Notes under the pieces: model-generated
Databases searched by the model: none
What the model was told of the DNA's origin: nothing
The model's input: only the letters and a program-made list of their open reading frames with translations
Virus record (IMG/VR): IMGVR_UViG_3300022661_001261
Location: 595-64,594 of that record
Origin: a virus
Lineage: Duplodnaviria > Caudoviricetes
Direction: 5' to 3' (one strand)
DNA length: 64,000 nucleotides
Made by a program: the position numbers and the translations under genes
Shown: positions 1 to 64,000 of the stretch, piece after piece
How positions within the stretch are numbered: the stretch's first letter is position 1
How the letters are laid out: each line of letters begins with the position of its first letter

Positions 1-1291
1 AGAAAAACGCCCAAAAAGGACTGCGGGATATGTATACGCGACAGACAAAAATCGCTATGCAAGTGCAGGAAAAAGCCTTACAAGCGTTAAAGCAACTCGA
101 CGTTGAGGCGATGTCCCCGAAAGACATCAAGGAATATATCCGAATGGCGACGGAGTTGGAACGCCTCAACAGAACATTGAGCGCAGCCCCGGACGAAAGC
201 GAGAAAGCCGGGAGCGGTAGTCTTGCAGATACCATTATCGCCGCCTATCAAAGACGAAAGGACGGTGAGGGTCAATGAGTTTAAGTCAAGAGGCTATCCT
301 ATATTACTCGGAACACCCCGTCCACTTTGTAGAGGACCTTATCGGAGTAAAGCCGGACGACGCACAGGCGAAAATACTACAAAGCGTGGCGGACAACCCT
401 ATGACATCGGTACGGTCGGGCCACGGTATCGGAAAGAGTGCGGTAGAAGCGTGGGCGATTATATGGTTTATGGCTACAAGACCGTTCCCGAAAATAGCCT
501 GTACTGCACCGACGCAACATCAGTTATTCGATATTCTTTGGGCGGAAGTCAGCAAATGGCTACGAAACGCCCCGCAGCTCGACAAAGAGTTTGTGTGGAC
601 GAAAGAAAAAGTCTACCTCAAAGGCTACCCGGAGGAATGGTTTGCGGTAGCGCGTACAGCGACAAAGCCGGACGCTCTGCAAGGTTTTCACGCCGATAAC
701 ATCTTATATATTATCGACGAGGCGAGCGGCGTAAAAGACATCATATTCGAGCCTGTACTCGGTGCGTTGTCAACGCCCGGAGCAAGACTCCTTATGTGCG
801 GAAACCCGACGCAGCTGTCGGGCTTCTTTTATGAGAGCCATACAAAGAACAGGGCCACATACAAAACATTCCACGTAGACGGCAGAAAGAGCGGACGCGT
901 ATCCCCGGAATTCGTTGAAATGATTATACGAATGTACGGTGAGGACAGCGACGTATTCCGCGTCCGTGTAGCGGGAGAATTCCCAAAGGCGGAGGCAGAC
1001 GTATTTATTCCGATTTCTCTCGTCGAAAAGTCCATAATGACGGAGTTTTCTCCCCGAAAAACCCCGAATACTATACGGATTGGGTGCGACGTTGCTCGTT
1101 TTGGCGACGATAAGACGATAATCGGCTCGAAAGTAGACGAAAAAGCGACACTCGATAAGAAACGCCACGGACAGGACACAATGAAGACAGCAGACGACAT
1201 TGTGTTACTGTACTACGACTTACTAAAAAGATACCCCGGCTACAAAGACTACATCACGGTCTGCGTGGACGACGGAGGCGTGGGCGGCGGC
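1..1291 (+). repeat. Diverged direct repeat, copy 1 (terS 3' end + terL 5' part)
   Basis: Colinear, ungapped match to 62710-64000; 34 mismatches in the first 420 nt counted by eye, mostly synonymous. Confidence 0.95.
30..278 (+). CDS. terS: Terminase small subunit, C-terminal part (5'-truncated by the window)
   Basis: Near-identical to the C-terminus of 62487-62984; ATGA overlap with terL. Confidence 0.85.
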   Translation: MYTRQTKIAMQVQEKALQALKQLDVEAMSPKDIKEYIRMATELERLNRTLSAAPDESEKAGSGSLADTIIAAYQRRKDGEGQ

Positions 1292-1684
1292 GTGGTAGAC
1301 CGCTTACGACAAATCAAGAGAAACAACCCGGATAGGCTCGACCAAATGAATATCGTGCCTGTAAAATTCGGTCAGCGCATAAAACACAAATACTACCACG
1401 ACAGTACAACATTTATGATGGCGACGGTTAAGAAACTGTTATCCCCTCACGACGAAGAAACGGGAGAGGAAAAGCCCGTCGAACTCATACTACCTAACGA
1501 CGACGATTTGATAGCGCAACTTTCGGGAAGAAAATACCACCTCACCGAGAACGCGAAAATCAAAGTCGAGAGCAAGGACGATATGAAGAAACGCGAGTTA
1601 CCGTCCCCGGACGAAGCGGACTGCGTTTTGCTTTTGTGCGTCCCTGTAAAACAACCTAAACGGAAAGGAGAAACAAAGAAATGA
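275..1684 (+). CDS. terL: Terminase large subunit
   Basis: Walker A-like VRSGHGIGKS, Walker B IIDEASG, coupling motif GNPT, nuclease motif IGCDVARFGDD, C-terminal SPDEAD. Confidence 0.96.
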   Translation: MSLSQEAILYYSEHPVHFVEDLIGVKPDDAQAKILQSVADNPMTSVRSGHGIGKSAVEAWAIIWFMATRPFPKIACTAPTQHQLFDILWAEVSKWLRNAPQLDKEFVWTKEKVYLKGYPEEWFAVARTATKPDALQGFHADNILYIIDEASGVKDIIFEPVLGALSTPGARLLMCGNPTQLSGFFYESHTKNRATYKTFHVDGRKSGRVSPEFVEMIIRMYGEDSDVFRVRVAGEFPKAEADVFIPISLVEKSIMTEFSPRKTPNTIRIGCDVARFGDDKTIIGSKVDEKATLDKKRHGQDTMKTADDIVLLYYDLLKRYPGYKDYITVCVDDGGVGGGVVDRLRQIKRNNPDRLDQMNIVPVKFGQRIKHKYYHDSTTFMMATVKKLLSPHDEETGEEKPVELILPNDDDLIAQLSGRKYHLTENAKIKVESKDDMKKRELPSPDEADCVLLLCVPVKQPKRKGETKK

Positions 1685-2154
1685 AGCGACTACTATCAGT
1701 TTTGGTAGCCTTTGCCCTGCTTTTGGCGATTTCAGCGTGTTCCGCGCCTACGGAGGGGAATTATACCTCTGACCCCGAAAGTACGCTCACGGGCGTTTCA
1801 GCGACCGCAGAGCCTACGGAGGAGATTGTGGCGGAGGAATGGGTGAATGTTGACATCGGCGTAGACGAAGACGGATTTTACGGACTCGCAGGACCGGTGG
1901 AACTCACTTATTACGACGGGCAGTTGGTAAGCGTTTATGTAGACGACCCGGCGTTAATGTATTTCGCTGTTTCCTCGACTATGGGCGGAGGCGTTTATAT
2001 TTTCAAAATGCCGGAGGGCAACGCTATTATAGACGAACTCACGACCGTAGCGGAGGAACTAAAAGAAGCGGGACACAGCGACCTCGCCGCAAAAGTGGAC
2101 GCTATTATCGACTCCTTTACAACCGCCGGTCCCATAGAGGGCGCGAGTACATAA
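1681..2154 (+). CDS. Putative lipoprotein inserted between terL and portal
   Basis: Signal peptide MKRLLSVLVAFALLLAISA-C with lipobox; acidic body; ATGA overlap with terL. Confidence 0.75.
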   Translation: MKRLLSVLVAFALLLAISACSAPTEGNYTSDPESTLTGVSATAEPTEEIVAEEWVNVDIGVDEDGFYGLAGPVELTYYDGQLVSVYVDDPALMYFAVSSTMGGGVYIFKMPEGNAIIDELTTVAEELKEAGHSDLAAKVDAIIDSFTTAGPIEGAST

Positions 2155-51276: not shown

Positions 51277-51854
51277 ATTATAGATACATAAAGGGCGCAG
51301 AAAGAGTCAAGGAGTCGGTGGAGTTTGATACCGCTGAAACGACTTGCAAGGTCAACATAGACCTCTTGCTGTGCGGAATAAATAAATTCCCTCGCGCCGA
51401 CGGCAATACCGAAACCCTCACCCCCGAAAGACGCTACGAGATTTTGAAATTCGTGGAGCAGGAACGCGGAAAATTCGTTCACAAAGCAGGACCGAAATCT
51501 ATGGAGGATTGGGAAAACAGCGGCCTCGGCTCGTTTGATGAGTTTTTCTTCCCCGGCGACACCGTTACGGAAGATGTATACGACAATTTCCTCGATATTC
51601 TCCCTCCTGCCACGATGAGGAGAAATCTCCTCCAAGTCGGAGAGCCGGCCGCCCACGAAAAAGACCCCGAAACAGGCAATTACAGAGCGACCTACTCAAC
51701 ATTCGTCAGAACGGACGGTCTGTGGTGGTACGCCGGAGAGTGTTTCCTCGGTGAAACGGTAAACAGGCGCACCCGCCCCGGCAGACTCGCCGAAAAGTTG
51801 GCGGAGGCAGAAAAAGAACTCAAAAAGAAAGCCGTAAAGGAGGAGCGAAAATGA
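51273..51854 (+). CDS. Hypothetical protein
   Basis: ggaggtg RBS, GTG start; operon. Confidence 0.6.
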   Translation: MNYRYIKGAERVKESVEFDTAETTCKVNIDLLLCGINKFPRADGNTETLTPERRYEILKFVEQERGKFVHKAGPKSMEDWENSGLGSFDEFFFPGDTVTEDVYDNFLDILPPATMRRNLLQVGEPAAHEKDPETGNYRATYSTFVRTDGLWWYAGECFLGETVNRRTRPGRLAEKLAEAEKELKKKAVKEERK

Positions 51855-52840
51855 CAAAATCGCAAATTATAACAGGCGACACACTTTCTGTGCTTGGGAA
51901 AATGCCCGACCGCTGTATCGACTGCTGCATTACATCTCCTCCGTACTTCGGTTTGAGAGATTATGGAGCGGACGGACAAATAGGACTCGAAGAAACCCCG
52001 GAGGAATACATACGACGTCTTGTTGAAATATTCAGAGAAGTCCGCCGAGTAATGCGCGACGATGGGACTCTTTGGCTCAATATTGGGGATAGTTACGCAG
52101 GGAGCGGAAAAGGCAGAATGAAAGACGGCTCACACAGCGCGGACCGCTCGAAATCAAGCGACTATCTTTGCAATGTAGGCGGAGCGATTACAAAAAGCAA
52201 AACGCCGGGCATTAAAAGGAAAGAACTAATCGGAATACCGTGGTTGCTCGCTTTTGCTTTACGCGCTGACGGTTGGTATTTGAGGCAGGATATTATTTGG
52301 CATAAGCCAAACACAATGCCCGAAAGCGTCCAAGACAGATGCACAAAGAGCCACGAGTATATATTCTTGCTTACAAAGAAGCCTTGCTACTATTTCAACA
52401 ATAAAGCAATACAAGAGGATAGTGTCAGTTACGACAGACGGCAATCAGGCGAAACCCAAGAGGCAGAAAAACGACAAAAACAACTGCCTCGATATGGTGG
52501 CAAAAAATACACATCTACCCCCGACAAATTTTTCAGAACAAAGTCGGGAAACGCTTATGACTACCGCCCAAAAAGAAACAAGCGCGATGTTTGGAGCGTT
52601 TCTACACACGGATACCGCGAAGCGCACTTTGCGACGTTTCCCGAAAAACTTGTAGAGCCTTGTGCTCTCGCAGGGTGCAGACCGGGAGGAATAGTCCTTG
52701 ACCCGTTCTGCGGGAGTGGGACTGTCCCTGTTGTGGCAAAGAGGTATGGGCGTGAATACATCGGAATTGACATCAACCCCGAATACACATCTATGTCAGA
52801 AAGAAGAGTCGAAGCAGAAAAAGGAGGAAACAACAAATGA
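51851..52840 (+). CDS. N4-C/N6-A DNA methyltransferase (beta class)
   Basis: ITSPPY motif IV precedes LDPFCGSG motif I; IIWHKPN; HFATFPEKL. Confidence 0.93.
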   Translation: MTKSQIITGDTLSVLGKMPDRCIDCCITSPPYFGLRDYGADGQIGLEETPEEYIRRLVEIFREVRRVMRDDGTLWLNIGDSYAGSGKGRMKDGSHSADRSKSSDYLCNVGGAITKSKTPGIKRKELIGIPWLLAFALRADGWYLRQDIIWHKPNTMPESVQDRCTKSHEYIFLLTKKPCYYFNNKAIQEDSVSYDRRQSGETQEAEKRQKQLPRYGGKKYTSTPDKFFRTKSGNAYDYRPKRNKRDVWSVSTHGYREAHFATFPEKLVEPCALAGCRPGGIVLDPFCGSGTVPVVAKRYGREYIGIDINPEYTSMSERRVEAEKGGNNK

Positions 52841-53895
52841 GATTATTCAGTACAGAACAGGTAACGAAATACCACCCCGACAAATACGCCGACCAAATCA
52901 GCGACGCGGTGCTGACTGCGTGTTTGCAGGAAGACCCGGAGAGCCGTGTCGCCTGTGAGTGTTTGGTAAAAGGCGGGACCGTTGTACTCGCCGGAGAGAT
53001 TACCACGACCGCAAAAATCAATTATGCGGACATTGTAACCCGCGTTGCAAGAAAACTCCGCTACACCGCGAACAACATCATTACATACATCGAACAGCAG
53101 TCGCCCGAAATCGCCGGAGGCGTGAAAAGCGGCGACGACCTTTGCGCCGGGGACCAAGGCATTATGTTCGGCTATGCCACCAACGAAACCGAGAGCGGCC
53201 TACCCTATGCCCTCGACCTTGCCAATACGCTTTGCAGGGTGCTTGAATTTGACGCGGAACAGCCAAATTCCGCCCTCAAAGGCGACGCAAAGGTACAGGT
53301 AACGGTAGACTTGGACGCGCCGAAAGACGACCGTAGCCTCGTAGAAATCCTTATCAGCGTATGCCACAAGGAACAGTACACCCTCGAAGAAATCCGCAAG
53401 TATGTGGAAAATGTTGTGGAATACAGCGGTATCGACATCGGTGAGGCAAGGCTCAACATCAACCCCGCCGGCCGTTGGACTATCGGCGGACCGTCTGCGG
53501 ACTGCGGACTCACAGGCAGAAAAATCGTATGCGACCAATACGGCGGATTTTGCGCCGTCGGCGGCGGAGCGTTTAGCGGAAAAGACCCCTCAAAGGTTGA
53601 CCGCTCCGCAGCTTATATGGCGAATTATATCGCCCGCGACCTCGTAAAAAATCACGGCCTCGAACATTGCGAGGTGCAAATCGCCTACGCTATCGGAGAG
53701 CCGAAGCCGATGAGCGTTTCCGTCAAGTCGTCAAGCCCCGCGGAGGACGCATATTTTGCGGAACTCGTGGCAAAGAAATACGACCTCTCCCCGGCGGGAA
53801 TTATTAAATTCCTCGACCTCCTCAATGTTGACTATGAGAAACTTGCGGAGGGTTGCCACTACCGAATGGAGTTACCCAAGAGAGAGGAGGCGTAA
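52837..53895 (+). CDS. metK: S-adenosylmethionine synthetase
   Basis: HPDK.ADQISDA, AGDQGIMFGYA, GLTGRKI..D.YGG, GGGAFSGKDPSKVDRS. Confidence 0.95.
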   Translation: MRLFSTEQVTKYHPDKYADQISDAVLTACLQEDPESRVACECLVKGGTVVLAGEITTTAKINYADIVTRVARKLRYTANNIITYIEQQSPEIAGGVKSGDDLCAGDQGIMFGYATNETESGLPYALDLANTLCRVLEFDAEQPNSALKGDAKVQVTVDLDAPKDDRSLVEILISVCHKEQYTLEEIRKYVENVVEYSGIDIGEARLNINPAGRWTIGGPSADCGLTGRKIVCDQYGGFCAVGGGAFSGKDPSKVDRSAAYMANYIARDLVKNHGLEHCEVQIAYAIGEPKPMSVSVKSSSPAEDAYFAELVAKKYDLSPAGIIKFLDLLNVDYEKLAEGCHYRMELPKREEA

Positions 53896-54485: not shown

Positions 54486-55715
54486 ATGCAAATAGCCATT
54501 ATTGACGCAGAGATAGTCGGCAAGAAGAAACACCGATTTCCAAATCTCGCGTGTATGAAAATCTCAACTTTTTACAAGCAACAGGGACACACCGTAACGC
54601 TGAAAACGGATTACGAAGACCTCGGCGCATTCGACAAGGTTATCATATCAAAAGTTTTCACAGACACGGAAATACCCGGAGAGCCGGAGGACAAAAACGG
54701 CAAGACGGCGGAGAGCGTTATGGAGTGGTACGCCGACAACGAATTCTTGAAGCAACCTAATATCGAATACGGCGGGACGGGCTTTTTCTATGACAAAGCA
54801 CCGAGCCTCCCTTGCGAGATAGAACACAGTCGCCCGGATTACCACCTCTACGATGAGTGGGTACAAAAGGCGATCGCCGCCGGAGCGAAACCCGGAGAGT
54901 TTGAATATTACACCGATTATTCTATCGGCTACATAACGCGAGGCTGTTTTCGACGTTGTCAGTTCTGCGTCAATAAGAAGTATTCAAAGGCATTTGCGGC
55001 AAGCGCAATTTCGGAATTCCTCGACCATGAGCGTCCGTATATCTGTCTACTTGATGATAACTTTTTCTCCTATGCAAAATGGCAAGAAGTTATAGAAAGC
55101 GTCAAACAGACGGGCAAACGTTTTCAATTCAAACAGGGACTCGACGAGCGATTGCTGACCCCGGACATCGTAAGAGAAATGAACACTTGGAAATACAAAA
55201 AGGAGTTTATTTTTGCTTTCGACAACATCGAGGACAAGCAGCTCATAGAGAAACAAATCCAAATGATATACGACACTTGCCCGGACTTCAAAAAAGGTCT
55301 GAAATTTTATGTATTCTGCGGTTATGACCGAAAGGGACAGTACACCGAGGAGTTTTGGAAGAAAGACATCGAGGACCTTTTTGAGCGTATAGTAACCCTG
55401 GCCAAGTACGGTGCTAAACCTTATGTAATGCGATACGAGCGTGTTTACAAGGAGCGTTACGCAGGGCTTTACGCAGCGATAGCGGCGTGGTGTAATCAGC
55501 CCAACATCTTCACCACTTTTACATTCAGACTGTTCTCCAAATGCAGAGGTATGTCAAAGAAAGGTTACGCACAATTCAAGCGTGACACCGAGGCATACCT
55601 CCGAGCCGGAGGAAAGAAACAGGCTATATGGCGATATATGGAGGAGGCGGAACAGCAATTCCCCGACATTGCCGCCAAATACTTCGATTTTGACGCAAAG
55701 GAGGCGACAAAATGA
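54486..55715 (+). CDS. Radical SAM protein with B12-binding-like N-terminal region
   Basis: FPNLACMKIS N-terminus; ITRGCFRRCQFC (CxxxCxxC); LLDDNF; QGLDERL. Confidence 0.8.
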   Translation: MQIAIIDAEIVGKKKHRFPNLACMKISTFYKQQGHTVTLKTDYEDLGAFDKVIISKVFTDTEIPGEPEDKNGKTAESVMEWYADNEFLKQPNIEYGGTGFFYDKAPSLPCEIEHSRPDYHLYDEWVQKAIAAGAKPGEFEYYTDYSIGYITRGCFRRCQFCVNKKYSKAFAASAISEFLDHERPYICLLDDNFFSYAKWQEVIESVKQTGKRFQFKQGLDERLLTPDIVREMNTWKYKKEFIFAFDNIEDKQLIEKQIQMIYDTCPDFKKGLKFYVFCGYDRKGQYTEEFWKKDIEDLFERIVTLAKYGAKPYVMRYERVYKERYAGLYAAIAAWCNQPNIFTTFTFRLFSKCRGMSKKGYAQFKRDTEAYLRAGGKKQAIWRYMEEAEQQFPDIAAKYFDFDAKEATK

Positions 55716-57138: not shown

Positions 57139-57533
57139 ACAGCGTAAAACTATCGGGCCGACTCACAGCAGACCCGGAACTCAAAATGACACCCCAAAAC
57201 GTGGCGGTAACGACCTTTATTTTGGCGGTAGACCGTAGAACAAAGGACGACAAGGCAGATTTCCCCACAGTCGTTGCGTGGCGACAGACGGCGGAATTTG
57301 CCTCCCGATACCTACGCAAGGGCCGTCGAATTATTGTAGAGGGCGAACTCCGCACCCGAACATACGAAGACCGGGACGGAAAGAAACGCAAGGTAACGGA
57401 GGTTGAGGCGACCAATATCGAATTTGCCGACAGTAAACCCGCAGACGCACCCGGAGGCAACGCTCCACAATACGGCGGAACGCCGGACGGATTTGAAGAA
57501 CTCGGCAGCGACGACGAATTACCGTTCAATTAA
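57135..57533 (+). CDS. ssb: Single-stranded DNA-binding protein
   Basis: NSVKLSGRLTADPEL OB fold; acidic tail DDELPFN. Confidence 0.95.
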   Translation: MNSVKLSGRLTADPELKMTPQNVAVTTFILAVDRRTKDDKADFPTVVAWRQTAEFASRYLRKGRRIIVEGELRTRTYEDRDGKKRKVTEVEATNIEFADSKPADAPGGNAPQYGGTPDGFEELGSDDELPFN

Positions 57534-57546
57534 GGAGGTGTAGAAA

Positions 57547-57819
57547 ATGGCTAAAAAGAGAAAGTGTAGATATACCCCGGAGGAACTCGAAATCCACGAA
57601 CAGGCGGTCAAACTCCGCAAAATGACCGACGAACAACTCGTAATGGCGTTCAGAAACGCCTCTGCTCCCTCCTCTGCCGTTTCCGAACAGGAGGTAGAGA
57701 AAGACACGGGTGGAGTAAAAAAACTGATTGAGGGCCTTTCTCGTGGCGACTGCAAGGGCGTTAAGGGAGCGACCGTCTACAAAATTCAGCAGTACGCAGA
57801 GGAAATGGGGCTGATTTAA
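57547..57819 (+). CDS. Hypothetical protein
   Basis: aggaggtg RBS. Confidence 0.6.
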   Translation: MAKKRKCRYTPEELEIHEQAVKLRKMTDEQLVMAFRNASAPSSAVSEQEVEKDTGGVKKLIEGLSRGDCKGVKGATVYKIQQYAEEMGLI

Positions 57820-58421
57820 TGGACGCGAAACGACACCACCAATATGTGTTGCAGGGCTACAAGAACAAATACAACGGCCTCTCGTTTGAGGAGATTATCA
57901 CAAACTCCTGCCACCACTACATAGCGAGAGAGGTCGCCGTGATAATCAAGACCCCGGAGCCTATGCGGCCGATAAGGGACCTCGGCGGAGGAAAATTCGT
58001 CGCCGTTTACGAAAAACACGCGCAGCCGGACTACAAGGGCGCGTTAATGGGTGGACGGGCGATAATGTTCGAGGCGAAGCACACCGACACAGAGGAACTG
58101 AAACAATCCGCCGTAACCGAGCCGCAGACGGTATCGCTGAATTATCACGAGAAGTTTGGCGCGGAGTGCTTTGTGTTAATATCGTTTGGCTTTCGACAGT
58201 TTTTCCGCGTCCCGTGGAAAGTCTTTAAGGCGATGAAAGAGGTTTACGGCCGGAAATATGTACGGCCGGCGGATTTGGCGCAATACAGAGTCCGTTTTGA
58301 CGGTATGGTGCTACATTTTTTAGAAAAGGAGGAGCGCGAGTATGCGAATATTTCAAAGGCAACGCAAAAAACAGGCGCAGGACAGAGCAAGAGAGATAAC
58401 GGAGGCGGTAAGGACTTATAA
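57819..58421 (+). CDS. recU: Holliday junction resolvase (RecU-like)
   Basis: GLSFEEII, IIKTPEP, QPDYKG, FEAKHT. Confidence 0.82.
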   Translation: MDAKRHHQYVLQGYKNKYNGLSFEEIITNSCHHYIAREVAVIIKTPEPMRPIRDLGGGKFVAVYEKHAQPDYKGALMGGRAIMFEAKHTDTEELKQSAVTEPQTVSLNYHEKFGAECFVLISFGFRQFFRVPWKVFKAMKEVYGRKYVRPADLAQYRVRFDGMVLHFLEKEEREYANISKATQKTGAGQSKRDNGGGKDL

Positions 58422-58599
58422 CGAGGCTCTCTCCGCTCTCGGAGAAGCGGCGGCAGTAATCGGCAGAGTCGCAAAAGAAAACGGAATGTCTACGGAGAAA
58501 ATCGAAACCTCCGTGGCAAAAATGCAGGAAATCGCCCGGACAGCCCAAATATGCCCGGAAGACTTAACGAGAGGAGGAAACCGCTGTGGGAAAAGATAA
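58342..58599 (+). CDS. Hypothetical protein
   Basis: ggagg RBS; overlaps neighbours. Confidence 0.45.
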   Translation: MRIFQRQRKKQAQDRAREITEAVRTYNEALSALGEAAAVIGRVAKENGMSTEKIETSVAKMQEIARTAQICPEDLTRGGNRCGKR

Positions 58600-59248
58600 A
58601 GGGACCGATATTCAATCAATTATCACGGCAGCTGTAAAGGCCGCCTACGAGGTAGCACACAAAGACCTCGAAACCAAATTACAGGAGGCAGTCAGCCTCG
58701 GAACGCAGATAGGAGCAGCTGTCGGCGCGGAGGTAGGCGCAAAGGCCGCTATAAAAGCGGTAGAGCGTGAGAAAAAGAAAGTCCGTGAGCAACAGTACGA
58801 CCGCCGATACCATAACACGAAACTCCTCTTACGAAACTACCGCCGACTCAACGAGTATTTCAAGAACGCTATTTTTGAGATAGAACAGGCGGAGGAATAC
58901 GACGAAACATTCATCGACATTATGGAGGTAATGACGGGCAGAGGCTACGACGACGACCTCTATGTGGAAAGCATTAAGCAATCGACTGTCCGCACCAAAA
59001 TCGTAATGACCCACGTAAACCGTATGCTCGACGTGTACGGAATTATGTGCGAGAGGTCAACGCGAGAGGACGACAAAAGGCACTACCGAATTCTCCGCGC
59101 CCTTTACCTCGATGAAACACCGACGACAGCACAGGCAATCGCCGACCGGGAACACATCGACAAAAGGACCGTTTATAAAGATATAGACGCAGCCACAGAC
59201 TGCTTGACTACTCTGTTCTACGGAATAAGCGGAATTGAGAAGTTATGA
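58586..59248 (+). CDS. Putative late transcriptional regulator (RinA/ArpU/sigma region 4-like C-terminal HTH)
   Basis: AQAIADREHIDKRTVYKDI HTH; last early gene before the late leader. Confidence 0.65.
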   Translation: MGKDKGTDIQSIITAAVKAAYEVAHKDLETKLQEAVSLGTQIGAAVGAEVGAKAAIKAVEREKKKVREQQYDRRYHNTKLLLRNYRRLNEYFKNAIFEIEQAEEYDETFIDIMEVMTGRGYDDDLYVESIKQSTVRTKIVMTHVNRMLDVYGIMCERSTREDDKRHYRILRALYLDETPTTAQAIADREHIDKRTVYKDIDAATDCLTTLFYGISGIEKL

Positions 59249-59282
59249 CCCACTTGCCCCCGATGAGGGCAAAAAGAGGGCA

Positions 59283-59405
59283 TTTACAAGGCTATATGAA
59301 GTGTGCTATAATGTATGGTGTAAAATTCCCCTTTAAGTTTTTCGGGAATTACACTTCTCCTAAAAAAGACCGCCCTTTCCGCGAGGTTTGGGCGGTTTAT
59401 TTTTT
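59283..59405 (+). promoter_or_regulatory. Putative late promoter followed by a leader hairpin and intrinsic terminator
   Basis: TTTACA-N18-TATAAT (extended TG) at 59283-59312; hairpin ~59318-59353; stem ACCGCCC/GGGCGGT 59369-59396 then ttatttttt. Confidence 0.55.
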
Positions 59406-59454
59406 GCCGAGAAAAGCCCCGTTTTGGGACATTCAAAAAAGGAGGTGCGTACCT

Positions 59455-60045
59455 ATGGATATACGCAAAATGAAAATCAGCGATTTGCGGCCGGCAGATT
59501 ACAATCCGAGGCAGGACTTACAGCCCGGCGACCCCGAATACGAAAAAATCGCTAATTCTATCGAAGAATTCGGGTATGTAGAGCCTGTCGTATGGAATGA
59601 ACAGACGGGCAACGTCGTAGGCGGACACCAACGCCTCAAAATCCTCGCAGCCAAAGGCTACGAAGAAATAGAGGTATCGGTGGTAAATATGAGCCTCCAC
59701 GACGAAAAGATACTGAACGTCGCACTCAACAAAATCGGCGGCCGTTGGGACACAGGAAAACTCACCGAAATCTTGCAGGAACTCAAAGAAATGGGCGAAA
59801 TGGAGATTACGGGCTTTGAGGAATGGGAGCTCGACGCGCTGAATATGCAGTACGACCACATCAGCGACCTTTTGGAGGAGGATTTTTCGGAATTCGCAAG
59901 TAAAGAGCCGAAAGACACCTTTACAATGACCTTTACCCTCCCGGAGGAGGAAAAGGAAACCGTACAGGCGTACATCGAAAACACCGAGAACGCCAAAATG
60001 GAAATCGCTACGGCGATTATCAACAGGGTCAAGGGGGTGTGTTAA
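59455..60045 (+). CDS. ParB/Srx-like N-terminal domain protein 1
   Basis: LRPADYNPR, SIEEFGYVEPVVWN, VGGHQRL, LNVALNKI; ggaggt RBS. Confidence 0.85.
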   Translation: MDIRKMKISDLRPADYNPRQDLQPGDPEYEKIANSIEEFGYVEPVVWNEQTGNVVGGHQRLKILAAKGYEEIEVSVVNMSLHDEKILNVALNKIGGRWDTGKLTEILQELKEMGEMEITGFEEWELDALNMQYDHISDLLEEDFSEFASKEPKDTFTMTFTLPEEEKETVQAYIENTENAKMEIATAIINRVKGVC

Positions 60046-60615
60046 GTGATTATCGAAAGAAAACGCATAGACGAATTAGAGCGGGCTAAATATAACCCGC
60101 GCGTCGAACTCCGCCCCGGCGACGATGAATACGAGAAGCTGCGCCACAGCATTCTCAAAAACGGTATGATACTCCCGGTCGTTTGGAACAAGAGGACGAA
60201 CACCGTAGTCGGAGGACATCAGCGACTCACGGTATTGGAGTATGAGGGCGAGGAATTCGTCGAGGTATCGGTCGTAGACCTTGACATCGTGCAGGAGAAG
60301 CAGCTGAATATCGCTCTGAATAAGACGGGAGGCCGTTGGGACGAAACGAAACTCGTTGCCCTGCTCGAAGAACTCGGCGACGACGCGACCGAAACAGGTT
60401 TTGACCTCGCAGAGATTGAAGCCCTGCAGAACGACATCGACAGCCTCGTAGACGGAGGATTTTTGGAAGACGAATTATCCTCCCTCGAAAAACTGTTCAA
60501 CCTCTCACTCACTTTTAACGCCGCAGACAGAGCGGACATCAATGCCTACATCAAGGACTACGGCAAAGAGGAACTCGTCAAGGTAATTATACAGAAAGTG
60601 AAAGGAGAGATTTAG
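60046..60615 (+). CDS. ParB/Srx-like N-terminal domain protein 2 (paralogue)
   Basis: YNPR, PVVWNKRT..VVGGHQRL, LNIALNK; GTG start. Confidence 0.85.
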   Translation: MIIERKRIDELERAKYNPRVELRPGDDEYEKLRHSILKNGMILPVVWNKRTNTVVGGHQRLTVLEYEGEEFVEVSVVDLDIVQEKQLNIALNKTGGRWDETKLVALLEELGDDATETGFDLAEIEALQNDIDSLVDGGFLEDELSSLEKLFNLSLTFNAADRADINAYIKDYGKEELVKVIIQKVKGEI

Positions 60616-60616
60616 T

Positions 60617-61636
60617 ATGGGCTGTATATGTGGAAGTCAAGCGATTTTGTGCAACCTCCCGATTAGGTTTGACACCTACAAGGGGTGTAGCCACGCTTGT
60701 CGTTATTGCTTCGCTCAAAAGAAGCAGGACATCGCAAAGTTAGGAAAAGGCGAAACGGCAGAGAGCCTCCGCAACTTTATTGAGGGCAAACGCACCGACA
60801 CGACAAATTGGTGCGATTGGAATATCCCGATACATTGGGGCGGAATGAGCGACCCGTTTCAGCCTATCGAAAAGAAGTACAGAGTTTCCTATGAGTGCCT
60901 CCAACTGTTAGCGGAAACTCAATACCCGTTTGTGGTAAGCACAAAAGGCCGCCTCGTAGGAGAGCCGGAGTACATCGAACTGCTTTCCAAGTGTAATTGC
61001 GTAGTGCAAGTATCAATGGTTTGCAGTAAGTACGACCAACTCGAAAGAGGTTGCCCGACATACGAGGAACGCCTCGACATCGTAAAGAGGCTCGCCCCGA
61101 AAGTGCAGAGGGTCGTCGTAAGAATTCAGCCGTATATGTTGGAGGTATTCGACGATGTGATGAAGAATATCCCCCGACTCGCAGAGGCAGGAGTCTACGG
61201 CGTAGTTGTAGAGGGTATGAAATTCTTTAAGGGAAAACCGGGAATGGTAAAAATCGGAGGCGACTACTGTTACCCGCTACCCGCTATCCGCAGGGATTTT
61301 GAGGCAATCCGAGCGGAGTGCCACCGCCACGGTATGAAATTCTATTCGGGAGAGAACAGACTCCGCGCAATGGGCGACGATATGTGCTGTTGCGGAATAG
61401 ACGGACTACCCGGCTTTAAGGGCAACGACTACAACCTATGTATGCTTATGAACGGCAAAAACCCTCAACCGACCGAGAATATGAAAAAGGTCGGGACCGG
61501 CGGTTGCTTCAAGGCGTTAAATCAGAGCGCGGGCAGCAGCCGAAAACTCGCCAAGCAGTCATTTTACGGGCTTATGCAGGAGGAACTCGCAACGAAGACC
61601 GAATATCACAAAAAGGTGTTCGGGGTTGACGAATAG
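60617..61636 (+). CDS. Radical SAM protein (spore photoproduct lyase-like family)
   Basis: DTYKGCSHACRYCFA (CxxxCxxC), GGMSDPFQP, STKG, RIQPY; C-terminal CCCG. Confidence 0.85.
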   Translation: MGCICGSQAILCNLPIRFDTYKGCSHACRYCFAQKKQDIAKLGKGETAESLRNFIEGKRTDTTNWCDWNIPIHWGGMSDPFQPIEKKYRVSYECLQLLAETQYPFVVSTKGRLVGEPEYIELLSKCNCVVQVSMVCSKYDQLERGCPTYEERLDIVKRLAPKVQRVVVRIQPYMLEVFDDVMKNIPRLAEAGVYGVVVEGMKFFKGKPGMVKIGGDYCYPLPAIRRDFEAIRAECHRHGMKFYSGENRLRAMGDDMCCCGIDGLPGFKGNDYNLCMLMNGKNPQPTENMKKVGTGGCFKALNQSAGSSRKLAKQSFYGLMQEELATKTEYHKKVFGVDE

Positions 61637-62471
61637 CCTCACGCCCGTACAGGAAATAAACGGACTGCTGATGAAGCGCGACGACCTCTACACTCCACTC
61701 GGACACGGAGAGGTCAACGGAGGAAAACTACGGCAATGTATGATGTTGACGGACAGCGTTTTAGCGTCCCAAGACGACGTGCGTTGCCTTTTTACCTATT
61801 GTAGCATACATTCACCCCAAGCACCGATAACGGCCGCCTCTGCCCTTGCTCACGGCTTACCCTGCTACATAGTGTACGGAGGAGCAAAGCCGGAGAACAT
61901 AAAAGCGTTGCCAATGCCGCGATTGGCGATGAAATACGGTGCTGAAATCATAATCGGCGCGAGGAGTGGAAGACACAGTATTCTACACGCAAAGACAAAG
62001 CCTCTCGCCGAAAAGAAACGCGGATTTATAGTGCAATACGGCATTAACCTCACGGACCACGGCGACGTCCTTTTGGACGCGGTATCGGCACAGGTACAGA
62101 ATATCCCCGACGAGATAGAAAACCTCGTAATGACTTGTGGGAGCGGAATTACCTCATCGGGCGTTATGATAGGCCTCCACCGATACGGCAAAAAGGTCAA
62201 GAATGTTCACCTTGTCGCAACGGCCCCGGACCGTCGGGCGTTTATACACGAAAACCTCAAAAAGTACGGAGCGGACCGTGAATTCCATTATCACAGTTTA
62301 TTCCATACGCCGGGATTTCAGTATGAGAAAGGCGCAAAGGCGGTATGGGGGGGTCTGAAACTTCACCCACATTACGAGGCGAAGACTATGCAATGGTTTT
62401 TGCAGAGCGGACTGCAACCCTCCGACACCCTCTTTTGGATTGTCGGCGCAGAGCCGTCCAATAAATCGTAA
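61626..62471 (+). CDS. PLP-dependent enzyme, ACC deaminase / D-cysteine desulfhydrase-like (fold type II)
   Basis: LMKRDDL...GGKLR (PLP Lys), TCGSGITSSG phosphate loop, YEAK; TTG start overlapping the rSAM stop. Confidence 0.75.
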   Translation: MTNSLTPVQEINGLLMKRDDLYTPLGHGEVNGGKLRQCMMLTDSVLASQDDVRCLFTYCSIHSPQAPITAASALAHGLPCYIVYGGAKPENIKALPMPRLAMKYGAEIIIGARSGRHSILHAKTKPLAEKKRGFIVQYGINLTDHGDVLLDAVSAQVQNIPDEIENLVMTCGSGITSSGVMIGLHRYGKKVKNVHLVATAPDRRAFIHENLKKYGADREFHYHSLFHTPGFQYEKGAKAVWGGLKLHPHYEAKTMQWFLQSGLQPSDTLFWIVGAEPSNKS

Positions 62472-62486
62472 AGGAGAGGAGGAAAA

Positions 62487-62984
62487 ATGCCAAATAATAC
62501 CAAAAGTAAGCCGTGGGAAAGACAATCGGGCGAAAGCGAAAAGGCGTTTGAGGCATTTTCCCTCTATCGAGATAAAGGGGCGGACCGCACCTTAATATCG
62601 GTTGCGGAGGAGTTGCAAAAGAGTTACACACTTATCCGCCGTTGGTGCGACCGTTGGGATTGGGAGGAACGGGTCAGAGATTACGACAACGAATTGGAGC
62701 GAGAGGCGAAGAAAAAAGCCCAAAAGGGACTGCGGGATATGTACTCCCGACAGACCAAAATCGCTATGCAAGTGCAGGAAAAAGCACTCCAAGCGTTGAA
62801 GCAACTTGACATCGAGGCGATGTCCCCGAAAGACATCAAGGAATATATCCGAATGGCGACGGAGTTGGAACGCCTCAACAGAACATTGAGCGCAGCCCCG
62901 GACGAAAGCGAGAAAGCCGGGAGCGGTAGTCTTGCAGACACCATTATCGCCGCCTACCAAAGACGAAAGGACGGTGAGGGATAA
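62487..62984 (+). CDS. terS: Terminase small subunit
   Basis: KPWERQSGESEKAFEAFSLYRD...RWCDRWDWEER N-terminal HTH type; TAATG overlap with terL. Confidence 0.82.
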   Translation: MPNNTKSKPWERQSGESEKAFEAFSLYRDKGADRTLISVAEELQKSYTLIRRWCDRWDWEERVRDYDNELEREAKKKAQKGLRDMYSRQTKIAMQVQEKALQALKQLDIEAMSPKDIKEYIRMATELERLNRTLSAAPDESEKAGSGSLADTIIAAYQRRKDGEG

Positions 62985-64000
62985 TGAGTTTGAGTCAAGA
63001 CGCTATTCTCTATTACTCGGAACACCCCGTCCACTTTGTAGAGGACCTTATCGGAGTTACGCCGGACGCAGAACAAGCAAAGATAATACAGAGCGTTGCC
63101 GACAACCCTATGACATCGGTGCGGTCGGGACACGGTATCGGAAAGAGCGCGGTCGAGGCCTGGGCGATAATATGGTTTATGGCTACCCGCCCATTCCCGA
63201 AAGTCGCTTGTACAGCTCCTACGCAACATCAGTTATTCGATATTCTTTGGGCGGAGGTCAGCAAATGGTTACGAAACGCCCCGCAGCTTGAAAAAGAGTT
63301 TGTGTGGACGAAAGAGAAAGTCTACCTCAAAGGCTACCCGGAGGAATGGTTTGCAGTAGCACGTACAGCGACAAAGCCGGACGCTCTGCAAGGCTTTCAC
63401 GCTGACAATATCCTGTATATCATCGACGAGGCGAGCGGCGTTAAAGACAACATATTCGAGCCTGTCCTCGGTGCATTGTCAACACCCGGAGCAAGACTCT
63501 TGATGTGCGGAAACCCGACGCAGCTGTCGGGCTTCTTTTATGAGAGTCATACGAAGAATAGAGCCTCCTACAAGACATTCCACGTTGACGGAAGAAAGAG
63601 CGGGCGCGTATCGCCCGAATTCGTCCAAACGATTATCCGAATGTACGGTGAGGACAGCGATGTTTTCCGCGTCCGTGTAGCAGGAGATTTCCCGCTATCC
63701 GAGTCTGATGTGTTTATCCCGATTTCTCTCGTAGAAAAGTCCATAATGACGGAGTTTTCTCCCCGAAAAACCCCGAATATGATACGGATTGGGTGCGACG
63801 TGGCTCGTTTCGGCGACGATAAGACGATTATCGGGTCGAGGGTCGATGAAAAAATCAACATCGACAAGAAACGCCACGGGCAGGACACAATGAAGACGGC
63901 AGACGACATCGTATTGCTTTACTACGACTTATTAAAACGACACCCCGACTACAAAGGCTATGTAACGGTCTGCGTGGACGACGGAGGCGTGGGCGGTGGC
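62710..64000 (+). repeat. Diverged direct repeat, copy 2
   Basis: Colinear with 1-1291 at offset 62709; about 90% identical. Confidence 0.95.
62984..64000 (+). CDS. terL: Terminase large subunit, second allele (runs off the window)
   Basis: ATG at 62984; MSLSQDAILYYSEHPVHF...; same motifs as 275-1684. Confidence 0.93.
   Translation, partial: MSLSQDAILYYSEHPVHFVEDLIGVTPDAEQAKIIQSVADNPMTSVRSGHGIGKSAVEAWAIIWFMATRPFPKVACTAPTQHQLFDILWAEVSKWLRNAPQLEKEFVWTKEKVYLKGYPEEWFAVARTATKPDALQGFHADNILYIIDEASGVKDNIFEPVLGALSTPGARLLMCGNPTQLSGFFYESHTKNRASYKTFHVDGRKSGRVSPEFVQTIIRMYGEDSDVFRVRVAGDFPLSESDVFIPISLVEKSIMTEFSPRKTPNMIRIGCDVARFGDDKTIIGSRVDEKINIDKKRHGQDTMKTADDIVLLYYDLLKRHPDYKGYVTVCVDDGGVGGG

Follow-up and report, generated by a model that had tools for sequence, protein, structure and literature searches.

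A ParB–radical SAM gene pair with an optional PLP enzyme gene ahead of phage terminase genes: a candidate module for post-replicative DNA base modification

The window analysed here is the whole stretch of 64,000 nucleotides covering positions 595 to 64,594 of IMG/VR virus record IMGVR_UViG_3300022661_001261. It is best read as part of a temperate phage infecting gut anaerobes of the Oscillospiraceae type, in which a cassette of four genes, all on the plus strand, heads the late packaging operon. The features of the region are as follows.

52837..53895, plus strand, MetK, a phage SAM synthetase and possible SAM source for the radical SAM enzyme
58586..59248, plus strand, HTH protein (phrog_1558) with HTH_11 at its C-terminus
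59283..59312, plus strand, promoter-like site TTTACA-18-TATAAT with extended TG, from a consensus scan only (11/12 matches)
59455..60045, plus strand, ParB1, with a ParB N-terminal nucleotide-binding domain and a short helical C-terminal domain
60046..60615, plus strand, ParB2, a paralogue of ParB1 with the same architecture
60617..61636, plus strand, radical SAM enzyme of the SPL/COG1533 type, with CxxxCxxC at residues 24–31 and SDPFQPxE
61626..62471, plus strand, fold-type II PLP enzyme of the gp226/gp52 family, PLP lysine K34
62487..62984, plus strand, terS, small terminase subunit (phrog_6299, E 1e-32)
62984..64000, plus strand, terL, N-terminal part of the large terminase subunit, continuing past the end of the window

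An earlier note on this DNA had described four tightly packed or overlapping genes 5' of terS. They lie at the positions it gave and are packed as it described: ParB1 and ParB2 abut with 0 nt between them, a single nucleotide separates ParB2 from the radical SAM gene, and the PLP gene, which has a TTG start, overlaps the latter by 11 nt. The gene order was found again in 80 and another 44 viral loci and in 74 genome loci, and the arrangement is not due to chance. The longest ORF of ParB1 begins at 59245, the extra 70 codons being not conserved in distant relatives and containing the promoter-like site. This site, located in the 206-nt gap 5' of ParB1, is judging by its letters the likely start of the cassette–terminase transcript, with the count of such sites in the region not above chance. 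In close relatives the conserved neighbour 5' of the cassette is likewise the gene of the HTH protein, a possible regulator of late genes. MetK possibly supplies SAM to the radical SAM enzyme; it was present in three of five complete relatives and is not obligatory, and MetK-like genes were located directly 3' of the radical SAM gene in loci L053, L067 and L154.

Both ParB-like proteins matched Pfam ParB_N, ParB1 at E 6.6e-6 (26.5 bits against a cut-off of 26.3) and ParB2 below that cut-off (E 6.5e-4, 20.1 bits), and both matched phrog_620 (E 1e-44 and 6e-39 respectively). They are paralogues with 42% identity (E 1e-47). ParB1 carries the motifs NPR and GGHQR; ParB2, the better conserved of the two copies, adjoins the radical SAM gene. 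The AF2 model of ParB2 (pLDDT 85) had the ParB N-domain, CTP-bound ParB and Noc structures as its top matches, and both sulfiredoxin and free serine kinase scored below these in the model comparison. No HTH match was found in ParB1 or ParB2 in the Pfam scan, only two to three helices are modelled between the N-domain and the C-terminal helices, and TIGR00180 scored 17.1 against a cut-off of 58.45, so that a partition ParB with a central HTH for parS was rejected. The two paralogous ParB/Srx-type domains without HTH proposed in the earlier note were thus recovered. The note calls these domains catalytic; by analogy with known systems, the two proteins more probably help or activate a partner enzyme, catalysis of their own being the less likely alternative.

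To act on double-stranded DNA, phage thymine dioxygenases require activation by ParB proteins that lack a DNA-binding domain, and these ParBs co-occur with terminases (PMC13229309), which gives published support to the idea that ParB domains beside a terminase go with DNA-modifying enzymes. The cassette proteins can be likened to ParB176 of the 5mYOX176/ParB176 system (O'Toole et al., PNAS 2026, PMC13229309) by domain architecture and gene adjacency: there too a ParB without DNA-binding domain lies beside a base-modifying enzyme, often near the terminase, and is needed for dioxygenase activity on double-stranded DNA. The partner of ParB176 is an Fe(II)/2-oxoglutarate dioxygenase served by one ParB, whereas the cassette has an oxygen-sensitive radical SAM enzyme, two ParBs and no Tet_JBP match. 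ParB–DNA methyltransferase fusions (phrog_498) occupy the same pre-terminase slot and are matched by ParB1 and ParB2 at E 7.5e-44 and 7.6e-37; in Mycobacterium phage Vincenzo a ParB-MTase-like gene (gp1) is followed by a PLP homologue, terS and terL. Unlike these fusions, the cassette ParBs have no methyltransferase attached and are followed by the radical SAM gene instead.

The AF2 model of the radical SAM protein (pLDDT 92.8) showed a partial TIM-barrel fold, and all top PDB matches listed were radical SAM enzymes; the Pfam Radical_SAM score was slightly under its cut-off (27.6 against 29.5 bits). Spore photoproduct lyase (SPL, PDB 4fhc) was the best match (Foldseek E 1.7e-7; VIA Z 18.0, rmsd 2.9 over 234 residues), with lipoyl synthase second at Z 15.6. 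The cysteines are arranged as C24-SHA-C28-RY-C31 and C257-C258-C259, and the SPL-like enzyme with CSHACRYC and a C-terminal CCC that had been proposed before is therefore upheld. C24, C28 and C31 show no variation across 30 close and 14 distant relatives, M6 gp53 among the latter; in the family C12, C126, C258 and C259 are likewise fixed, and C5, C66 and C136 almost fixed. The likeness to SPL is limited, with 12–14% identity, the 70-residue N-terminal region of SPL missing here and a Cys-rich C-terminal domain (residues 247–339) which does not align with it. SPL proper acts on the thymine methyl/methylene in DNA, with an H-donor Cys and a Tyr relay (C140 and Y98 in G. thermodenitrificans) and a DNA-binding hairpin; it belongs to a sporulation regulon, the cassette enzyme to a phage late operon with ParB. 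The cellular COG1533 equivalogs were rejected, as Rv2578c (NF038135, 67.7 against 430 bits) and PA0069 (NF033668, 57.1 against 360 bits) were matched far under their cut-offs and with partial coverage. Relatives of the enzyme are called ‘DNA repair photolyase’ in the source annotations.

By sequence, the radical SAM enzyme shows distant homology to M6 gp53 (E 1e-6, 22% identity across 223 core residues), and the two have the C12-equivalent, CxxxCxxC and DPFxPxE in common. A ~110-residue N-terminal extension of gp53 is missing from the cassette enzyme, which bears the Cys-rich C-terminal domain. M6 gp53, the one relative of the cassette enzyme whose part in modification has been studied biochemically, is a radical SAM glycinyl-thymine isomerase, a tailoring enzyme and not an initiator (PMC8989533).

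The PLP protein matched PALP (E 1.7e-6) and the ACC-deaminase/D-Cys-desulfhydrase family TIGR01275 (E 1.5e-6) below the curated cut-offs; for the latter, 27.8 bits against 289.4 points to a common fold and superfamily only. The closest solved-structure relative is 1j0a, and matches to desulfhydrases were partial (E 1e-6 to 1e-9). Far nearer are the phage proteins of phrog_3650 (E 3.8e-46), with end-to-end alignments to ViI gp226 (27% identity, E 2e-27), Vincenzo gp2 (29%, E 2e-27) and M6 gp52 (23%, E 3e-5), whose proposed PLP lysine K36 is paired with K34 of the cassette protein. There were 346 phage matches, mostly from ViI-like phages. K34, S63, S173 and the C-terminal motifs HPxYExK and FWxxG are invariant in the family alignment, and both the PLP lysine and the phosphate-binding loop are conserved. 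The ACC-deaminase/D-cysteine-desulfhydrase-like enzyme of the earlier note thus holds for fold and superfamily and fails for the closest kin. For gp226 and gp52, biochemical work has demonstrated decarboxylation of amino acid adducts in DNA, O-seryl- and C-alpha-glycinyl-thymine (PMC8989533), and on sequence grounds the cassette protein is assigned to this family of DNA-adduct decarboxylases. At 23–29% identity it could nevertheless run another reaction.

Fold-type II PLP enzymes classically perform beta-elimination or replacement, and the best NCBIfam matches of the PLP protein are lyases of this type. The ParBs and the radical SAM enzyme might make a simple reactive handle, for example 5-hydroxymethyluracil formed without oxygen, to which the PLP enzyme, in this view no decarboxylase, would attach a Ser- or Cys-derived aminoacrylate by beta-replacement. 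The core product would then have to be complete alone, as most ParB–radical SAM loci are without any tailoring gene, and no amino acid:DNA transferase was matched. We regard this scheme as rather unlikely, since hydroxylation by a radical SAM enzyme would require an oxidant or electron sink and gp226 and gp52, the characterised proteins closest to the PLP protein, are decarboxylases (PMC8989533).

Adjacent genes for an SPL-like radical SAM enzyme and a fold-type II PLP enzyme, both homologous to those of the cassette, also occur in the 5-NedU pathway of Pseudomonas phage M6 (Lee et al., NAR 2021/22, PMC8989533), at an identity of only 22–23%. The M6 pathway further depends on a dUMP hydroxymethylase and a polymerase of its own, together with a 5-hmdU DNA kinase and a glycine:DNA transferase; the searches recovered these in M6, and none is present here. 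The M6 cluster has no ParB partners where the cassette has two. Salmonella phage ViI gp226, which makes 5-NeOmdU (PMC8989533), resembles the cassette PLP enzyme in full-length homology, C-terminal motifs and PHROG family, but is a protein of 424 aa with N-terminal and internal insertions, encoded by a large lytic myovirus without a radical SAM enzyme, and acts after a kinase and a serine:DNA transferase on 5-hmdU DNA.

No match to Thymidylat_synt, Tet_JBP, HMUDK_hel or ADDT was found in the 100%-complete record or in 13 PLP-carrying relatives at least 90% complete. In the ADDT and HMUDK_hel searches the positive controls M6 and ViI were both found; the Thymidylat_synt search was run with positive controls and the Tet_JBP search without one. 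A supply of 5-hmdU by a dUMP hydroxymethylase of the thymidylate synthase family or by TET/JBP was therefore not detected in the record and these near-complete relatives. The enzymes that make N-alpha-GlyT, the gp53 substrate, were likewise not found: neither 5-HMUDK nor an amino acid:DNA transferase of clade 2 was matched in these genomes. The missing steps could be concealed among the proteins of unknown function in the genome. The combination had been described as matching no recognised pathway; this is half right, as the known earlier-step enzymes were not matched in these genomes, whereas the radical SAM and PLP pair is homologous to M6 gp53 and gp52, and the PLP protein also to ViI gp226.

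A ParB gene was located directly 5' of the radical SAM gene in 80 of 80 viral loci and in 72 of the 74 prophage loci, which span eight or more phyla. The pairing also occurs in distant contexts, including ParB-MTase fusions, and P0014 has an in-frame fusion of ParB2 with the radical SAM enzyme. Prophages from gut, rumen and sediment carry the core in abundance, with 3,388 clusters matched at E 1e-3 or better. To this conserved core the PLP gene is an optional addition. It was present in 31 of the 78 assessable loci (~40% of relatives), the other 47 having the radical SAM gene without it; at least ten gains or losses were placed on the radical SAM tree, some relatives have the PLP gene frameshifted with an intact radical SAM gene, and it is polymorphic even between the two ends of this record. 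The four genes are thus not a single co-conserved unit, ParB and radical SAM alone fitting that description. The site of the PLP gene is constant all the same: close relatives (at least 55% identity) were found between the radical SAM gene and terS in 44 of 44 loci. Such a distribution, with the PLP gene always following a radical SAM gene that often occurs without it, would be expected if the PLP enzyme is a tailoring enzyme which needs the product of the core.

As the presence or absence of the PLP gene takes the form of a clean insertion or deletion of ~810 bp, it could be seen as an unrelated moron at a permissive site, next to a ParB-assisted SPL-like DNA repair or processing activity by which concatemers would be cleaned or made ready for packaging. 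The rank of SPL among the structural matches and the photolyase label of the relatives agree with this. It is nonetheless improbable: a free moron would not be confined to one site, the NCBIfam score is far under the cellular COG1533 cut-off, and spore photoproduct would be an unexpected lesion for replicating phage DNA in gut anaerobes. The PLP family is, moreover, tied to DNA hypermodification (PMC8989533).

Dispensability of the PLP gene also weighs on the earlier proposal that its product feeds sulfide or an amine fragment to the modification. In the sulfur version of this idea, a cysteine desulfhydrase would deliver sulfide to an auxiliary cluster of the radical SAM enzyme and the DNA would be thiolated. 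The extra conserved cysteines (C12, C126, C258 and C259), lipoyl synthase as second fold neighbour and weak matches of the PLP protein to the D-cysteine desulfhydrase, XcbE and CuyA families speak for it. As an essential step, such a supply fits poorly with a gene that is missing in ~60% of relatives and with a protein far closer to DNA-adduct decarboxylases than to desulfhydrases, and we consider thiolation very improbable. The superficial likeness to Dnd/Ssp phosphorothioation, with a PLP enzyme (the desulfurase DndA), a ParB-superfamily protein (DndB) and an Fe-S enzyme (DndC), does not extend further: DndA has another PLP fold type and no significant match to the cassette protein (E 0.81), no DndC/D/E-like genes were found in the Pfam scans, and DndC is a PP-loop enzyme, not a radical SAM enzyme (PMC10853773).

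Radical SAM and PLP enzymes are extremely versatile, and in this phage we infer DNA to be the substrate. Their target might instead be RNA, a protein or some small molecule, such as a virion protein in maturation or an anti-defence metabolite, with the ParBs serving packaging or partition. The near-universal ParB–radical SAM pairing across phyla, the ParB-MTase fusions in the same slot and the action on DNA of all characterised relatives of each component (PMC8989533, PMC13229309) make a target other than DNA unlikely.

The best reading of the cassette is a post-replicative DNA base-modification module, and the link between DNA modification and packaging drawn before remains the best account of it. 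Our main proposal, to which we give a probability of roughly 0.55, is that, ahead of packaging, a ParB-assisted radical SAM enzyme attaches to a normal base an adduct bearing an amino acid, and that this adduct is trimmed by the PLP enzyme. The ParB pair would lend the radical SAM enzyme productive access to double-stranded phage DNA, by analogy with the ParB-dependent thymine dioxygenases. Its 5'-deoxyadenosyl radical would attack a canonical base, most likely at the C5-methyl of thymine, because this chemistry is common to the only two characterised relatives of the enzyme, SPL and M6 gp53. The step would yield an adduct bearing an alpha-amino acid with a free amine. Where encoded, the PLP enzyme would strip the carboxylate to leave a cationic amine side chain, and phages without it would retain the amino-acid form. 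Since most ParB–radical SAM loci are without a tailoring gene, the core product need not bear an amino acid in every lineage. Co-transcription with terS and terL would place the decoration shortly before packaging, where it may shield the DNA from restriction in the next host. With relatives of finishing enzymes present and the known earlier-step enzymes missing, the decoration is probably oxygen-free. More tentatively, the radical SAM enzyme and ParBs may functionalise the canonical base in finished double-stranded DNA by radical C–C bond formation, likeliest at the thymine C5-methyl, giving an amino-acid side chain without oxygen, 5-hydroxymethyluracil, kinase or transferase, which the PLP enzyme would convert to an aminoalkyl group.

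To our knowledge, all thymidine hypermodification pathways worked out to date begin with 5-hydroxymethyluracil, which is made before replication or by oxygen-dependent dioxygenases. New here is the coupling of a PLP enzyme to the ParB–radical SAM pair, in phages without a match to the known earlier-step enzymes. With homologues of the last two tailoring enzymes and ParBs present and the known earlier steps missing, the four genes offer a compact system in which to ask whether hypermodification of DNA in anaerobes can be initiated by radical SAM chemistry. If so, this would be a second, anaerobic entry route to DNA hypermodification, and one spread widely among prophages from eight or more bacterial phyla. 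Sister phages with and without the PLP gene offer a natural comparison, as their modified nucleosides are predicted to differ by 44 Da, the mass of the CO2 lost. Given the abundance of the ParB–radical SAM core, any chemistry that it carries out would affect restriction evasion, sequencing signal and phage–host matching across much of the anaerobic virome.

The observation in the earlier note of a four-gene cassette ahead of the terminase genes was confirmed. All four genes are as described there and lie on the plus strand; they encode two ParB-like proteins (ParB1 and ParB2), an SPL-like radical SAM enzyme (rSAM) and a PLP enzyme.

Genes and sites of the cassette (positions in the window)
59283-59312, near-consensus promoter-like site, inside the ParB1 leader codons
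59455-60045, plus strand, ParB1
60046-60615, plus strand, ParB2
60617-61636, plus strand, rSAM gene
61626-62471, plus strand, PLP gene
62487-62984, terS, with terL as the next gene

ParB1 and ParB2 are separated by 0 nt and ParB2 and rSAM by 1 nt, the rSAM and PLP genes overlap by 11 nt, and 15 nt lie between the PLP gene and terS. The longest ORF of ParB1 contains 70 extra codons, which form a non-conserved leader. An Rfam scan of positions 57500-63000 gave no significant match.

The window corresponds to bases 595-64594 of the IMG/VR record. This record (64,594 bases, 100% complete according to CheckV) represents a temperate siphovirus-like phage with a serine recombinase, a CI-like repressor and an endolysin. 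Its replication and recombination genes encode an SSB, RecU, a loader resembling DnaC and a fused nuclease resembling SbcCD; a DNA polymerase is missing. Named relatives of its proteins are from Oscillospiraceae-type Clostridia, e.g. Faecalispora and Anaerotruncus. For rSAM, they include proteins with 68-75% identity in Faecalispora jeddahensis and Anaerotruncus colihominis and one with 76% identity in Clostridium sp. D33t1. The first 900 bases of the record contain the 3′ end of rSAM, terS and terL once more, at 93% identity but without the PLP gene; in its place this copy shows a clean gap, about 810 bp long, from the rSAM stop codon to the ribosome-binding site of terS. In the comparison of the ends (window 1-1700 against 61309-64000; record C1:1-900), one allele is PLP-plus and the other PLP-minus. 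Because they differ in the PLP gene, the ends derive from two co-occurring variants; as two 93% identical alleles, they also imply that the ‘linear’ record is a wrapped assembly, with a true genome unit of about 62–63 kb.

The PLP protein resembles ACC deaminase and is of fold-type II; its nearest solved structure is 1j0a. It has 346 phage matches, mainly in ViI-like Ackermannviridae, and matches phrog_3650 with an E value of 3.8e-46. End-to-end alignments were obtained with gp226 of phage ViI (E 2e-27) and gp52 of phage M6 (E 3e-5), in the latter case with K34 opposite the proposed PLP lysine of gp52, and the C-terminal motifs specific to the gp226/gp52 family are present. Both of these enzymes have been shown to remove the carboxyl group from amino acids linked to thymine in DNA (PMC8989533). 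A less probable reading is that the PLP enzyme does not decarboxylate but joins an amino acid to a simple handle by beta-replacement.

Among 78 assessable loci, the PLP gene was intact in 28, frameshifted in three and absent from 47. Its presence or absence changed at least 10 times on the rSAM tree, at least eight of these changes being forced by well-supported branches, and in sister pairs such as L003/L005 and L006/L007 it is the sole difference. Where close relatives of the PLP gene were found, they lay between the rSAM gene and terS in 44 out of 44 loci. The PLP gene is an add-on to the cassette. At several loci (L010, L011, L029/L124, L114, L121 and L125) it is split into two reading-frame pieces next to an intact rSAM gene, as would be expected if a dispensable gene were decaying or if the sequences contained errors. 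A PLP homologue with 29% identity to that of the window is also present in Mycobacterium phage Vincenzo (L001; NC_028934, 1-5796), where gene 1, the PLP homologue, terS and terL follow each other in this order. The product of gene 1 combines a ParB-like N-terminus with a sub-threshold N6_N4 MTase-like C-terminus; an actinophage, too, therefore has a decarboxylase-family member at its terminase genes, next to an enzyme that uses SAM and is linked to ParB.

The rSAM protein carries the motifs CSHACRYC (residues 24-31) and CCC (257-259). Its AF2 model (pLDDT 92.8) is most similar to spore photoproduct lyase (Z 18.0, rmsd 2.9 over 234 residues), followed by lipoyl synthase (Z 15.6). At the sequence level, rSAM aligns to the core of M6 gp53 (E 1e-6), an SPL-like isomerase whose gene adjoins that of gp52. 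Close relatives all retain cysteines C12, C126, C258 and C259; C12 and the CCG motif are also preserved more widely. The sulfur-containing adduct suggested in the earlier note would fit both the extra conserved cysteines of rSAM and its lipoyl-synthase-like second-best fold, but this model loses weight from the dispensability of the PLP gene and from the closer relationship of its product to the decarboxylases. The rSAM family is large, with 3,388 clusters at 50% identity and an E value of 1e-3 or better. A tblastn search against cultured phages returned two weak metagenomic matches only and no cultured model phage. In prophages of Collinsella and Eggerthellaceae (L158, L159, L163, L167, L171 and L172) rSAM measures about 410–430 aa, the C-terminal extension having no Pfam match.

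ParB1 and ParB2 are paralogues with 42% identity (E 1e-47). In each, a ParB N-terminal nucleotide-binding domain bearing the conserved motifs NPR and GGHQR is followed by a C-terminal domain that is short and helical, and no HTH was found in either. O'Toole et al. (PNAS 2026, PMC13229309) showed that thymine dioxygenases which modify dsDNA after replication require phage ParB-like proteins as activators. Those activators likewise have a nucleotide-binding and a C-terminal domain without a DNA-binding domain, and their loci often include terminases (PMC13229309). A complex prediction for ParB2 and rSAM, with alignments for both, scored 0.03 against a mark of 0.32, a value that is evidence neither of binding nor of its absence.

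The association of ParB with rSAM is strongly conserved. In all 80 IMG/VR loci collected by means of the rSAM protein (50–93% identity), a ParB gene lies directly upstream of the rSAM gene, and two ParB paralogues occur in relatives whose rSAM identity exceeds about 66%. A ParB-profile match is also the immediate neighbour of rSAM in 72 of 74 prophage loci from Clostridia, Bacilli, Actinomycetota, Bacteroidota, Planctomycetota, Lentisphaerota, Elusimicrobiota and Proteobacteria, the exceptions being one locus at a contig edge and one without a ParB match. The genes next in order are usually terS, terL and genes of portal size. More distant members are arranged as ParB_N-MTase, ParB_N and rSAM, or as rSAM, ParB_N, MTase and terL. 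A role of the cassette in repair, a less probable reading, agrees with the SPL fold of rSAM but leaves unexplained both the late-operon setting and why the PLP gene always occupies the same place.

In one relative (P0014, 515 aa), a singleton, ParB2 and rSAM are cleanly fused in frame. Three other candidate fusions (P0069, P0072 and P0073) lack CxxxCxxC and join the C-terminal part of rSAM, at a common breakpoint, to unrelated N-termini; they look like assembly chimeras, probably being these or deletion variants, and were set aside as evidence. In three more distant loci, the gene directly 3′ of rSAM (L053 1690-2475, L067 7017-7808, L154 6018-6803) encodes a MetK-like protein (S-AdoMet_synt_N) that is compact, at about 260 aa, and L067 has a further rSAM gene, encoding 285 aa, on the upstream side of ParB.

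Enzymes of the known thymine hypermodification routes were sought by six-frame family searches in the record and in 13 PLP-carrying relatives at least 90% complete. In none of these was a thymidylate-synthase-family enzyme (source of 5-hmdU), Tet_JBP, HMUDK_hel (5-hmdU DNA kinase) or ADDT (amino acid:DNA transferase) found, while the HMUDK_hel and ADDT models recovered their targets in M6 and ViI as positive controls. M6 gp51 and gp54 gave no match as queries against the phage. With these upstream enzymes absent, a decarboxylase-family enzyme is thus kept, only after this rSAM gene, without a known route to its known substrates. Two further regions of the window were considered as parts of the system.

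Other candidate genes (positions in the window)
51851-53895, plus strand, N6/N4 DNA methyltransferase gene overlapping a full-length SAM synthetase (MetK) gene
54486-55715, plus strand, second radical SAM protein of 409 aa, CFRRCQFC near residue 154, phrog_9298 (E 2.8e-46)

Action of rSAM on a methyl group from the phage N6/N4 methyltransferase was rejected as obligatory, N6_N4_Mtase being present in only three of 18 near-complete cassette-carrying relatives. MetK was rejected as an obligatory partner (present in three of five relatives), as was the second radical SAM gene as part of the system (none of five complete relatives); the latter lies two genes after MetK and its product has no Pfam match. 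Dnd-like phosphorothioation was discarded as well, DndA scoring an E value of 0.81 and other Dnd parts being absent.

The most economical reading of the cassette has four parts. With the assistance of ParB, rSAM would make an adduct on a canonical base; this adduct would bear a free alpha-amino acid; the PLP enzyme, where present, would trim it; and the modification would take place on replicated DNA, during expression of the packaging operon. The hosts are anaerobes, in which oxygen-dependent dioxygenases cannot work, making a radical SAM counterpart of the ParB-dependent dioxygenase attractive. The favoured target of rSAM would be the C5-methyl of thymine, since a methylene radical of thymine is an intermediate for SPL as well as gp53, the two relatives that have been characterised (PMC8989533). 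A target other than DNA is considered improbable.

The interpretation offered in the earlier note was partly supported. A DNA hypermodification system remains the preferred reading, but the statement that the combination matches no known pathway did not hold, as three links were found: gp226 and gp52 for the PLP enzyme, gp53 for rSAM and the dioxygenase activators for ParB. The cassette appears to be a novel variant among phage DNA hypermodification clusters, to which this window adds the coupling of a PLP enzyme to ParB and rSAM, a clean presence/absence polymorphism of the PLP gene and a controlled absence of the canonical upstream enzymes.
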